Shown here: piece by piece, positions 16,540 through 18,622 of the stretch | Numbering within the stretch: the first letter of the stretch is position 1 | Layout: every line of letters begins with the position of its first letter | Assembly (NCBI RefSeq): GCF_000008565.1 | Contig: NC_001263.1 | Coordinates: 2,160,661 to 2,192,660 of the forward strand | Direction: 5' to 3' | DNA: 32,000 bases | Source: Deinococcus radiodurans R1 = ATCC 13939 = DSM 20539 | GTDB lineage: Bacteria; Deinococcota; Deinococci; Deinococcales; Deinococcaceae | The notes under the pieces: generated by a model | What the model saw: the letters and a program-made list of their open reading frames with translations, nothing else | Databases searched by the model: none | What the model was told of the DNA's origin: nothing | Made by a program: the position numbers and the translations under genes

Positions 16540-17004
16540 TTACAGCGGGCTGAACACGAAGCGGTCGTACTCGCCGCCGCGCAGCACGCTTTCGGTGTGC
16601 TCGCCGAGGAAGGTCTGGCCGGTGATGGCTTCCAGCGCGCCCCACACCGCACCCAGGGTAAAGGTGCACTTGCGGTCGCTGCCCTGCTCCTCGCCCGCGC
16701 TGCACACGGTGTCGAAGCAGTCGACGATGTAGTTGTCGCCGTCCTTGACCACGCTGTGCACGCCGGTCAGGCGGGTGCCGTCCTTGCCGATGGCGCCATT
16801 GAGCAGCTCGGCGAGTTGTTCGGTGGGCACGTTGGCGCCGGTCACGCCGAGTTCACCGGCGAGGTTGTGGCCGCGCACCTTGCCGGCGCGGGTAAAGACC
16901 ACGGCGGCGCCGTCGGGGCCGAGGGTGTCCTCGATCCCGGTAATCACAGCTTTGAAGCAGACGACAGAGTTGAAGTCACCGAGGGTGGGTCGCAGTTCGG
17001 ACAT
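16540..17004 (-). CDS. V4R (4-vinyl reductase)-like small-molecule-binding domain protein
   Basis: The C-terminus of the 154-aa protein, CSAGEEQGSDRKCTFTLGAVWGALEAITGQTF..ESVLRGGEYDRFVF, fits the V4R pattern (C..C.F..G...G). AAGGAG lies 8 nt upstream of the verified ATG at 17004. Confidence 0.7.
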   Translation of the reverse strand: MSELRPTLGDFNSVVCFKAVITGIEDTLGPDGAAVVFTRAGKVRGHNLAGELGVTGANVPTEQLAELLNGAIGKDGTRLTGVHSVVKDGDNYIVDCFDTVCSAGEEQGSDRKCTFTLGAVWGALEAITGQTFLGEHTESVLRGGEYDRFVFSPL

Positions 17005-17061
17005 TGAGGTACTCCTTGAGGGGGAAAGAAGTCAGAAGGACAGGGCGGGAAGGGCAGAAGC

Positions 17062-17439
17062 TCAGAGCACCAGCGCGACGGTGCGCGCGGCGTCACGGGC
17101 TTCCATGTGCAGCAGGCCGAGGTTCATGCCGGTGGGGGTCACGACGGCGAGCACGCCCTTGCGGCCCGTGGCGTACACGTACACCTGACCGTCGGCGCCG
17201 CTCACCGACATCTCGGTCAGTTCGCCGGTGCCCAGCGTGTCGTTGATGCGCTTGCCCAGACCCAGGGCGGTGGCGGCCATCGCGGCCACGCGGTTGGAGT
17301 CGGTGGTGTCGCTGAACGACTGCGCAATCGGCAGGCCGTCGGTGGTCGCCACCAGGGCGCCGCGAAGTTCGGGGAGAGACGTGCGCAGGCTCTGGAGGGT
17401 GGCCTGGAGTTGTTGCTGTTTGCTGGCGGGGGCGGTCAT
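17062..17439 (-). CDS. Roadblock/LC7 (MglB-like) domain protein
   Basis: The 125-aa protein contains LRGALVATTDGLPIAQS...AAMAATALGLGKR...GQVYVYATGRKGVLAVV, a typical Robl/LC7 pattern. Its ATG overlaps the GTPase stop (ATGA at 17436-17439). AAGGAG lies upstream. Confidence 0.85.
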   Translation of the reverse strand: MTAPASKQQQLQATLQSLRTSLPELRGALVATTDGLPIAQSFSDTTDSNRVAAMAATALGLGKRINDTLGTGELTEMSVSGADGQVYVYATGRKGVLAVVTPTGMNLGLLHMEARDAARTVALVL

Positions 17440-17990
17440 GCGGTCTCCTTTTCAGTCTGGGTTCCGGATTCGGACTGAGTCTCGGGGGTGAGTTGCGATT
17501 CGAGCAGGTGGATCAGCACCTGCCGGGCGCTGTCGGGTTCGGTGGCCTGAAGGCCAATCACCTGTTCGGTCGGCAGGTCAAAGTAGCTGGCAATGTCCTG
17601 CGGGCTCCAGACGTCCTCGAGGTCCTGGCGGGTGACGCCGACCACGAAGGGCACCGGGTTCCGGCTGGTGATGAATTCGAGAATGTGCCGGGCGTGCAAA
17701 AAGTCCTGCGGGCGGTTGCCGGCGACCAGAAGAACCAGCCCCAGCGCGCCTTCACACAGCACGTCCCACATGAAGTCGAAGCGGTCTTGGCCCGGCGTGC
17801 CGTAGAGGTGCAGCTCGGTGCCGTCGAGAATGAGCGTGCCGAAGTCGAAGGCGACGGTGGTGGTGGCCTTGCCGATGTCCTCGCTGGCATCGGCCTCGGT
17901 GCTGACGACCGGGGTTTCGGACAGGGTCTGGACAAAGGTGGTCTTGCCCGCCCCAACCGGGCCGGAGACGACGAGTTTCATAGGAATCAT
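17436..17990 (-). CDS. Ras-like small GTPase (MglA/CvnD-like)
   Basis: The 184-aa protein has the P-loop GPVGAGKTT, a switch-I Thr-rich TTTVAFDFG, G3 YGTPGQDRF and G4 VTRQD. Its ATG overlaps the upstream stop (ATGA at 17987-17990). An alternative ATG lies at 17981. Confidence 0.85.
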   Translation of the reverse strand: MIPMKLVVSGPVGAGKTTFVQTLSETPVVSTEADASEDIGKATTTVAFDFGTLILDGTELHLYGTPGQDRFDFMWDVLCEGALGLVLLVAGNRPQDFLHARHILEFITSRNPVPFVVGVTRQDLEDVWSPQDIASYFDLPTEQVIGLQATEPDSARQVLIHLLESQLTPETQSESGTQTEKETA

Positions 17991-18622
17991 GCAGAACTTC
18001 CTCCAGTCAGGCGTCGCAGGGCGCTCAGCAACCTGCGAACAGGACCAGCGGGCTGGGCGCTGACCTGGGCCTGCGCGGCGGCCCGTTGCGGGGCAATCAG
18101 GCCAGCGGCGCGCAGACGGTAGAGCTCGGCTCGGGCTTCGGGCAGGCTGACCCGCAACTGGCCTGACAGGTCCGTCGCCGAGGCCCCGTGCTGAAGCAGC
18201 GGCGAGAGCGACGCCCAGCTCGCCCGCAGCGCTTCGGGCAGCGCCACCGAGCGCGCCGACGGCACGACCTCGAAGCGAGTGTCGGGGTGCGGGAGCTGCT
18301 GCTCGGGAATCGCGCTGCCGCTCAGGGCTTCACGAATCAGCTCGTTCACGGGCAGCGCAAAGTGGTACTCGGTCGGGCCAGCCTCAAAGCTGTACTCGCC
18401 GCGCGCTCCATTCACGAGTTGCGCCACCGTGTCGCGGACGCGCAGCGGCTCGCTCACGGGAAAGCCGTCGATAAAGATTGCTTGCAAGGTGCCCTGTTGC
18501 AGGTGCAGCTCCACGCTGCGGCCCGCCAGAGCGGTGCGCATAAACAGCACGCCGGTATGGCGCTGGAGCACCTTCATGATGTCGTTGAATGCGTGGTACT
18601 CGAAGTCACCGTAAATGGCCAA
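17987..18622 (-). CDS. DUF4388-like N-terminal domain protein with a possible C-terminal winged-helix region
   Basis: The N-terminus of the 211-aa protein, GDFEYHAFNDIMKVLQRHTGVLFMRT, resembles the DUF4388 opening (G.L..f.l.dllq.l....tG.L). The C-terminus ATDLSGQLRVSLPEARAELYRLRAAGLI is HTH-like. The start is a TTG at 18620-18622 and is uncertain. Confidence 0.65.
   Translation of the reverse strand: MAIYGDFEYHAFNDIMKVLQRHTGVLFMRTALAGRSVELHLQQGTLQAIFIDGFPVSEPLRVRDTVAQLVNGARGEYSFEAGPTEYHFALPVNELIREALSGSAIPEQQLPHPDTRFEVVPSARSVALPEALRASWASLSPLLQHGASATDLSGQLRVSLPEARAELYRLRAAGLIAPQRAAAQAQVSAQPAGPVRRLLSALRRLTGGSSA

Follow-up and report, generated by a model that had tools for sequence, protein, structure and literature searches.

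The stretch of DNA analysed here (hereafter the window) comprises 32,000 nucleotides (nt) of Deinococcus radiodurans R1 (NC_001263.1, positions 2,160,661 to 2,192,660; coordinates below are positions in the window), and this report is concerned with four tightly packed open reading frames (ORFs) on its minus strand. When matched to the published annotations, these correspond to DR2182 (gene 1), DR2181 (the GTPase gene), DR2180 (the Roadblock gene) and DR2179 (gene 4); the D. radiodurans R1 protein accessions for the region are AAF11728, AAF11729 and AAF11732, and an identical GTPase protein is encoded on chromosome CP150840.1. The cassette is a real operon encoding a Ras-like GTPase together with three partner proteins, and it is a member of the known MglA Group 5/MglB/PATAN class, with a conserved fourth subunit. 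Its features, in the direction of transcription, are as follows:

18716-18725, minus strand: AAGTGTAAGA motif, a candidate for the extended -10 element of a promoter, some 95 nt upstream of where gene 1 starts
17987-18622, minus strand: gene 1, DR2182, 211 amino acids (aa), TTG start; divergent PATAN/DUF4388 domain, winged helix and C-terminal helix
18005-18043, minus strand: cationic amphipathic helix at the C-terminus of the gene-1 product (residues 194-206), PVRRLLSALRRLT
17436-17990, minus strand: gene 2, DR2181, 184 aa, MglA-family Group 5 small GTPase (PF03029, motifs and published listing)
17940-17963, minus strand: G1 motif GPVGAGKT of the GTPase, P-loop intact
Residues 44-45 of DR2181, minus strand: G2 motif Thr-Thr, without an intrinsic arginine finger
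17787-17801, minus strand: G3 motif GTPGQ
17622-17633, minus strand: G4 motif TRQD
17062-17439, minus strand: gene 3, DR2180, 125 aa, Roadblock/LC7 protein (MglB/CvnB-type), PF03259 at 1.9e-21
17005-17061, minus strand: pyrimidine-rich spacer of 57 nt before gene 4, with an AAGGAG ribosome-binding site at 17012-17017
16540-17004, minus strand: gene 4, DR2179, 154 aa, V4R/Bet3-fold protein of a Roadblock-associated subfamily (AlphaFold2 and Foldseek)
16484-16522, minus strand: intrinsic terminator with a 17-bp stem, 10 GC pairs and a T-rich tail, ending the operon after gene 4

Two ATGA start/stop overlaps translationally couple gene 1 to the GTPase gene (17987-17990) and the GTPase gene to the Roadblock gene (17436-17439). 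An earlier reading of the locus made from the sequence only had pointed to this packing, to both overlaps and to the spacer with its AAGGAG, all of which are present. A terminator scan found no comparable terminator within the cassette. On the transcript the spacer is 75% pyrimidine, a level reached by 0.25% of all 57-nt segments of the window; the share is 72% in the equivalent spacer of a paralogous gene pair of D. radiodurans and 12-66% in other species. As the bias is absent outside D. radiodurans, it is regarded as a local peculiarity of this species, and we do not consider a function for the spacer beyond its ribosome-binding site. An AGGAG-type ribosome-binding site ahead of gene 4 is general across species.

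The TTG start of gene 1, which the sequence-only reading had noted and regarded as uncertain, is indeed present. The N-terminus MA(I/L)(Y/F)G begins at the same start in 34/34 orthologues; in four other Deinococcus genomes the homologous start codon is TTG, TTG, GTG or ATG, and it is preceded there by a conserved AAAGGCGG...ACC leader. The shared N-terminus and the start codons behind this conserved leader make the TTG start well supported.

DR2181 matches the Pfam family PF03029 (ATP_bind_1) at 8.6e-22, with Arf and Ras also above their thresholds. Across 60 homologues the G1 (GPVGAGKTT), G2 (Thr-Thr) and G3 (GTPGQ) motifs are conserved, within KATTTVAFDFG and LYGTPGQDRF in the case of the latter two, and G4 takes the form T(R/H)xD, being TRQD in DR2181 and THxD in cyanobacteria, with Arg or His in place of the Lys and no change at Thr and Asp. 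A GTPGQ G3 combined with a Thr-Thr G2 has been reported as the signature of MglA Groups 2-5, and a G4 of the form [NT]KxD as a property of Groups 1, 4 and 5 on which the grouping is not based (PMC4316618). Table S2 of that survey (Wuichet & Sogaard-Andersen 2014) lists this exact locus, as DR_2180, under "MglA Group 5, <MglB<MglA<PATAN" with 184 aa, and the placement of DR2181 in Group 5 is that of its published phylogeny. The motifs GPVGAGKTT, GTPGQ and TRQD had been read correctly from the letters, and the profile match together with GTPGQ bears out the proposed MglA/CvnD-type small GTPase.

The strong PF03259 match likewise supports the Roadblock/LC7 identity of DR2180 that had been suggested before. 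In the homologue alignment this protein carries a conserved Asp-Gly pair (TTDGLPIA), a feature of MglBs coupled to MglA Groups 2-5 (PMC4316618). Its closest solved structures by sequence are all Roadblock proteins: 7f8m (4e-10), CvnB5 (3leq, 4e-4) and MfpD/Rv3364c (8e-3). A literature search on the PDB codes 7F8M and 9JUE returned nothing relevant.

The product of gene 1 consists of a divergent N-terminal PATAN/DUF4388 domain (approximately residues 1-105), a QLPHPDTRF linker motif, a winged helix (approximately 125-180), a variable low-complexity linker and a C-terminal helix. Weak matches to PF14332 (DUF4388/PATAN) were obtained for 19/34 orthologues (best 1.3e-5), and, against a cut-off of 25, the counterparts encoded in the same position score 35.9 bits (Trueperaceae) and 76-91 bits (cyanobacteria, 1e-21 to 7e-26). 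Alignment with hhalign of the Deinococcus gene-1 family to the cyanobacterial PATAN-winged-helix proteins covered 184 columns and both domains (82% probability, E 1e-5). In their C-terminal half several orthologues match winged-helix families (HTH_20 at 3.4e-6, TFIIE_alpha, MarR_2). The earlier description of a DUF4388-like protein with a helix-turn-helix (HTH)-like C-terminus therefore holds at the family level; its further suggestion of a DUF742-like C-terminus is not supported, since Pfam shows no DUF742 match for DR2182 itself and only 2/34 orthologues match DUF742 (E >= 0.024), with generic winged-helix families scoring better. The AlphaFold2 model of DR2182 (predicted local distance difference test, pLDDT, 86) begins with an alpha/beta domain, continues with a winged-helix domain and a disordered linker, and closes with a helix. 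A Foldseek search of this model against the PDB gave nothing significant, with weak winged-helix matches only and no solved PATAN relative, and a sequence search against solved structures was likewise without significant result. PADLOC made no defence-system assignment; the winged helix probably accounts for its weak match (E 1.5e-4, 19.9 bits) of residues 25-180 to Csa3, a CRISPR-associated regulator with CARF and winged-helix domains.

Two further traits of gene 1 vary or recur among its homologues. The PatA-type alpha-helical PATAN insertion (about 45 residues in cyanobacterial homologues) is missing in gene 1 of Deinococcota and Verrucomicrobiota; this insertion is a subgroup feature that membership does not need. 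The terminal helix, PVRRLLSALRRL, has the highest hydrophobic moment of DR2182 (0.96) and a net charge of +4, and an equivalent helix follows the variable linker in Trueperaceae, Verrucomicrobia and cyanobacterial homologues. The helix may serve in membrane targeting or docking.

The assignment of gene 4 to the V4R/Bet3 fold comes from structure prediction and remote profiles. The AlphaFold2 model of DR2179 is of high confidence (pLDDT 87, predicted template-modelling score 0.84), as is that of gene 1, the underlying alignments being shallow and mostly of Deinococcus sequences (39 for gene 4, 34 for gene 1). In a Foldseek search against the PDB it gave 45 matches at E <= 1e-3, all to PoxR/MopR/DmpR or Bet3/TRAPPC3 and with template-modelling (TM) scores of 0.53-0.70. 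The V4R sensor domains of PoxR, MopR and DmpR came first (E ~1e-6, TM 0.62-0.70), followed by Bet3/TRAPPC3 of eukaryotes and Thorarchaeota (E 1e-5 to 1e-3, TM 0.53-0.70, probability 1.0). An exhaustive HMMER search yielded no more than 117 clusters (50% identity) for the gene-4 family, which is thus small; two of its most distant members exceed the cut-off of the Pfam V4R model (34.1 and 32.0 bits against 31), and the wider family profile matches the V4R protein MJ1460 (E 0.0018). No PF02830 match was found in eight closer relatives of DR2179, a Deinococcus-only profile found no V4R structure and gave spurious TEF-3 matches only, and a sequence search of gene 4 against solved structures returned nothing significant. 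The V4R-like character read from the letters is thus upheld at the level of fold and remote profile, and it agrees with an annotation of DR2179 and DR1611 as V4R proteins published in 2005 (PMC1274311).

Three cysteines of gene 4, Cys16, Cys101 and Cys113, are invariant in 39/39 aligned Deinococcus sequences. In the wider alignment Cys113 coincides with a Cys that canonical V4R members keep, and the Roadblock-associated subfamily has lost the canonical C-terminal V4R Cys residues; across the wider family the first and last positions of the triad differ from the canonical V4R zinc ligands.

The distribution of the cassette was followed from gene 4 outwards: a genome scan seeded with the gene-4 family matched 221 loci, and on 80 of these the four families were mapped by ORF calls and iterated hidden Markov models. 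All four families lie on one strand in 35/39 cyanobacterial loci, in 13/32 Deinococcota loci (including Trueperaceae) and in 2/9 Verrucomicrobiota loci. At some loci the Roadblock gene was masked by over-extended ORF calls, and restoring it raises the latter two counts to about 17 and about 3, respectively. An arrangement that brings these families together on one strand in dozens of genomes from three phyla is not due to chance. At least four gene orders were encountered, including gene 1-GTPase-Roadblock-gene 4 (P1>GTP>ROBL>P4), P4>ROBL>GTP>P1 and P4>ROBL>P1>GTP, in addition to duplicated sets; retained co-occurrence in permuted orders argues for selection on the co-occurrence of a functional unit rather than for inherited synteny. 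The check on four-gene co-conservation that had been proposed for this locus is hence positive for Deinococcota, Verrucomicrobiota and Cyanobacteria.

Within the cassette, the Roadblock and V4R genes are the tightest pair. A same-strand Roadblock gene lies within 600 nt of 71/84 gene-4 copies, most exceptions being at contig ends, and 13/32 Deinococcota loci hold a Roadblock and V4R pair without a GTPase or PATAN gene. A second pair of D. radiodurans, DR1612/DR1611, is 78% and 72% identical to the Roadblock and V4R proteins of the cassette, respectively, indicating that the pair was duplicated as a unit. Distances among the Roadblock proteins co-vary with those among the V4R proteins (Mantel r of 0.61 for Deinococcota and 0.80 overall, 0/999 permutations, uncorrected for phylogeny). 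Of the more remote relatives of gene 4, neither P0303 (a canonical V4R) nor P0265 or P0240 has a Roadblock or GTPase gene beside it, which confines the association to the closer gene-4 subfamily; a divergent cyanobacterial gene-4 branch is again found within a PATAN-GTPase-Roadblock cluster.

Several of the sampled loci show additional peculiarities. In the DR1611/DR1612 region (L002:5025-6474) a Roadblock protein of 124 aa and a V4R-like protein of 157 aa are encoded with no GTPase or PATAN gene; the pair adjoins a divergent ArsR-type HTH gene, and this trio lies between aconitase-family small- and large-subunit genes. Three Deinococcus-like gene-4 copies (L024, L027 and L028 on CAZVNM01 contigs; 68-71% identity, two with Roadblock neighbours) come from a metagenome-assembled genome labelled 'uncultured Bifidobacteriaceae', and this bin is probably mislabelled or really a Deinococcus. 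In the cyanobacterial loci L040, L066, L067 and L074 duplicated PATAN-GTPase-Roadblock sets accompany a single V4R gene, and L090:2228-8161 (GCA_000315565.1) holds a PATAN gene, a GTPase gene, two tandem divergent V4R-like genes (163 aa each), a Roadblock gene, a PATAN gene and a further Roadblock gene, which suggests a local expansion of the module in filamentous cyanobacteria.

Published expression data bear on all four genes. In an oxyR disruption mutant DR2179, DR2180, DR2181 and DR2182 were induced 4.95-, 3.79-, 5.31- and 3.85-fold, respectively, and all are among the 36 most induced genes of that mutant; in the wild type DR2179 rose 2.3-fold after H2O2 (p 0.064) (PMC2225504). The joint induction supports co-transcription and a link to oxidative stress, giving a positive answer to the question of co-regulation. 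DR0995, near the triple orphan-Roadblock cluster starting at DR_0993, is also among these 36 genes (3.86-fold), so that several Roadblock loci may share regulation.

There is little doubt about the identity and architecture of the cassette, and its interpretation as one operon for a small-G-protein switch with four components, of the MglA Group 5 type, is, on balance, favoured. The specific mechanism proposed as a whole is more tentative, and we would put it at somewhat less than an even chance. A dimer of the Roadblock protein DR2180 would set the nucleotide state of DR2181, most likely in the role of GTPase-activating protein (GAP), by analogy with MglB and the conservon Roadblock protein MfpD, both reported to be GAPs. 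The V4R-fold protein DR2179 would bind Roadblock and couple its activity to an input, which could be either a small hydrophobic ligand in the V4R pocket, as bound by the V4R domains of PoxR and MopR, or the redox or metal state of the Cys triad. DR2182 is proposed as a stoichiometric GTPase partner acting as guanine-nucleotide exchange factor (GEF) and/or effector, because its gene lies directly upstream of the GTPase gene and overlaps it, like the gene of the DUF742 GEF in conservons; MfpC (DUF742, HTH), from the same conservon as the GTPase MfpB, is the GEF of MfpB. The C-terminal amphipathic helix would probably hold DR2182 at the membrane or at a partner, and output might be passed on through its PATAN and winged-helix domains; in Synechocystis, such PATAN domains bind the motor ATPase PilB1. 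Oxidative stress is the probable physiological setting of the switch.

A number of observations weigh against this switch. At the level of the single proteins, the G4 motif of DR2181 lacks the usual Lys, so that its specificity for guanine is putative; DR2182 itself has no Pfam match at E <= 1 and its N-terminal domain no match among solved structures; and DR2179 has no Pfam match of its own, does not reach V4R PF02830 and lacks the canonical C-terminal V4R zinc ligands, the Cys triad being a putative alternative. At the level of the system, we infer the contact between the Roadblock and V4R proteins solely from synteny and from co-variation uncorrected for phylogeny; about 40% of the Deinococcota Roadblock and V4R pairs have no adjacent GTPase gene, so that the pair may function outside a GTPase context; and the oxyR mutation may act on the operon indirectly. 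No paper was found that assigns to any Group 5 system a function, an input or an output from experiment.

The main rival reverses the sign of the Roadblock action: the Roadblock protein, of a fold related to longin, and the Bet3/V4R-fold protein would form a hetero-oligomer that serves as exchange factor rather than GAP, mirroring the longin and Bet3 core of TRAPP. The Bet3/TRAPPC3 matches of the gene-4 model and the almost obligate Roadblock and V4R gene pair beside a Ras-superfamily GTPase speak for such a platform, as does the structural closeness of roadblock and longin domains, which act as GTPase platforms in Ragulator and TRAPP (PMC3747258). The complex itself is hypothetical, though, the best structural matches are bacterial ligand-sensor V4R domains and not Bet3, many Roadblock and V4R pairs have no neighbouring GTPase, and the characterised prokaryotic Roadblock partners of MglA-family GTPases are reported to be GAPs; we consider this reading unlikely. 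A slightly better, still minor chance is given to the V4R protein as a thiol or metal redox sensor acting through Cys16, Cys101 and Cys113, with the PATAN protein acting not on DNA but on a PilB-type secretion or competence ATPase and thereby tuning type IV pili or DNA uptake under oxidative stress. The invariance of the triad and its departure from the canonical zinc ligands at the first and last positions, the de-repression of the operon in the oxyR mutant with the H2O2 response of DR2179, and the binding of PATAN regulators to PilB1 are consistent with it; on the other hand, a structural zinc like that of PoxR or Thor-TRAPPC3 may be all that the Cys residues bind, the surroundings of the cassette contain no pilus or competence genes, and the gene-1 winged helix suggests nucleic-acid or protein binding instead.

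The remaining two explanations are less probable still. A kinase-less conservon, with gene 1 as the equivalent of the DUF742 protein (CvnC/MfpC) and homology of the whole to actinobacterial G-protein systems, would account for the common GTPase and Roadblock core, the GTPGQ motif, the PF03029 match and the HTH protein immediately upstream of the GTPase, as in cvnC-cvnD; MfpC sets the precedent of an HTH protein with GEF activity. It is improbable in view of the marginal DUF742 matches, which generic winged-helix families outscore, the absence of the G4 NxFD and G5 DAR motifs, and the published phylogeny, which places the GTPase in Group 5 and not in Group 2, outside the CvnD clade (PMC4316618); moreover, the genes called in the 6 kb to each side include no kinase, an absence that the sequence-only reading had noted correctly. 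Finally, gene 4 could be an unrelated neighbour, for example a metabolic regulator, that shares a transcript with a three-gene PATAN-MglA-MglB module. Earlier surveys report a three-gene neighbourhood only (PMC4316618), and Group 5 modules are present in phyla where the gene-4 family was not found. Roadblock adjacency in 71 of the 84 gene-4 copies, in three phyla and both gene orders, the co-occurrence of all four genes in permuted orders and the duplication of the Roadblock and V4R pair as a unit leave this explanation with very little credibility.

Upstream of the cassette, a scan for the sigma-70 consensus found no promoter. The AAGTGTAAGA motif listed above occurs at the equivalent upstream position in Deinococcus sp. 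VB343, in a Deinococcus metagenome-assembled genome and in D. aquatilis, and could represent a -10 element of the extended type. Two exact 10-nt direct repeats, GATCAGGGTG (minus strand, 12-nt spacing, 18730-18751), and one inverted near-copy at 18786-18795 form a repeat set 110-175 nt upstream of gene 1; these operator-like repeats were discarded as a candidate, since Deinococcus sp. VB343 and other species lack them in the corresponding region. A 210-aa ORF rich in Arg, Gln and Ala (18896-19528, minus strand) lies 273 nt upstream of the cassette. It has no relative in Pfam, PADLOC or among solved structures and is restricted to the closest Deinococcus relatives; it belongs to no family and is apparently not part of the module. 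Elsewhere in the window, the plus strand carries a tRNA cluster at 20970-21283 (tRNA-Ser(tga), tRNA-Ser(gct) and tRNA-Arg(acg)) and a separate tRNA-Pro(ggg) at 26071-26147.

The four-component switch of the Group 5 type would be of relevance beyond D. radiodurans, as Group 5 MglA systems are widespread in Aquificae, Chloroflexi, Cyanobacteria, Deinococcus-Thermus, Actinobacteria and some archaea. A V4R-fold protein genetically locked to Roadblock provides a candidate input module for these systems, the de-repression of all four genes in the oxyR mutant suggests a physiological condition, and D. radiodurans is genetically tractable; taken together, these points make the system directly testable. 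In addition, the cassette shows that bacteria encode a Ras-like GTPase together with proteins of the Roadblock and Bet3 folds, and the same folds cooperate in the eukaryotic TRAPP and Ragulator, which bears on the origins of these regulators. It is conceivable, if rather unlikely, that the Roadblock and V4R/Bet3-fold pair constitutes a bacterial two-protein regulatory platform for a Ras-superfamily GTPase, an operon-encoded counterpart of the longin/roadblock and Bet3 pairing in TRAPP/Ragulator, with the V4R pocket or the Cys triad as its small-molecule or redox input. If this were true, the association of the three folds would predate eukaryotes and exist outside Asgard archaea.

Among known systems, the cassette is closest to the MglA Group 5/MglB/PATAN class, with which it shares the GTPGQ G3, the Thr-Thr G2 lacking an intrinsic arginine finger, the adjacent Roadblock gene bearing the Asp-Gly pair and the adjacent PATAN gene. 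The PATAN-MglA-MglB trio has also been reported in Aquificae, Chloroflexi, Cyanobacteria, other Deinococcus-Thermus and one actinobacterium, and the same table assigns to D. radiodurans a Group 1 pair (DR_0853) and the orphan MglBs DR_0993 (three in tandem), DR_1612 and DR_2347 (Table S2, PMC4316618). The cassette differs from the described class in its fourth gene of V4R/Bet3 fold, also present in Verrucomicrobiota and Cyanobacteria, in a G4 of TRQD/THxD instead of [NT]KxD, and in a gene 1 that lacks the alpha-helical PATAN insertion and is fused to a winged helix and a C-terminal amphipathic helix. Its novelty is narrower than the sequence-only reading had implied, given that both the trio and the V4R label of DR2179 were already published. 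The obligate coupling of gene 4 to Roadblock and the conservation of four genes in three phyla appear to be new: the Group 5 survey contains 0 occurrences of 'V4R' (PMC4316618), the V4R-Bet3 paper makes no mention of GTPases or Roadblock, and the literature searched yielded no paper on a bacterial V4R-Roadblock-GTPase operon.

The label 'conservon-like' used in the earlier reading was a loose one, the exact class being the MglA Group 5/MglB/PATAN neighbourhood. Like the actinobacterial conservons/AGPS (CvnA-D; mycobacterial MfpB-E), the cassette combines a GTPGQ GTPase matching PF03029 with a Roadblock partner and has the gene of an HTH-containing protein directly upstream of the GTPase gene. 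Unlike them, it is not actinobacterial, has neither a sensor histidine kinase nor DUF742, carries a V4R-fold protein in place of a membrane sensor, and encodes a GTPase of Group 5 rather than 2, without the Group 2 motifs G4 NxFD and G5 DAR (as defined in PMC4316618). Lacking a kinase in the surrounding 6 kb, a DUF742 protein and the G4/G5 motifs of Group 2, the cassette is not a conservon. It also shares a Ras-superfamily GTPase and a Roadblock-fold regulator with the MglA/MglB polarity module of Group 1 (Myxococcus, Thermus, DR_0853), whose TVPGQ motif and intrinsic arginine finger are both missing in DR2181; the cassette is therefore not a Group 1 MglAB polarity module.

Gene 4 resembles the V4R domains of PoxR, MopR and DmpR and the stand-alone MJ1460 in its predicted fold, its MJ1460 profile match and the position of Cys113. 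It departs from these proteins in that DR2179 has no Pfam V4R match and has lost the C-terminal zinc ligands, with Cys16 and Cys101 conserved instead, and from PoxR, MopR and DmpR in that it is a stand-alone protein of about 155 aa, coupled to Roadblock and not to an AAA+ activator. Bet3 is a core subunit of the TRAPP Rab-GEFs, and the presence of Bet3-fold and Roadblock/longin-like genes beside a Ras-superfamily GTPase is common to the cassette, the TRAPP core (Bet3/TRAPPC3 with longin; eukaryotic and Asgard) and Ragulator-Rag, with the differences that the cassette is bacterial, has a Roadblock partner rather than a longin one and is known here from its genes and predicted fold. In the Lokiarchaeon MK-D1, operons reportedly do not, as a rule, combine genes for small GTPases with those for roadblock, longin or TRAPPC3 proteins, whereas in the cassette the GTPase, Roadblock and Bet3-fold genes share one operon.

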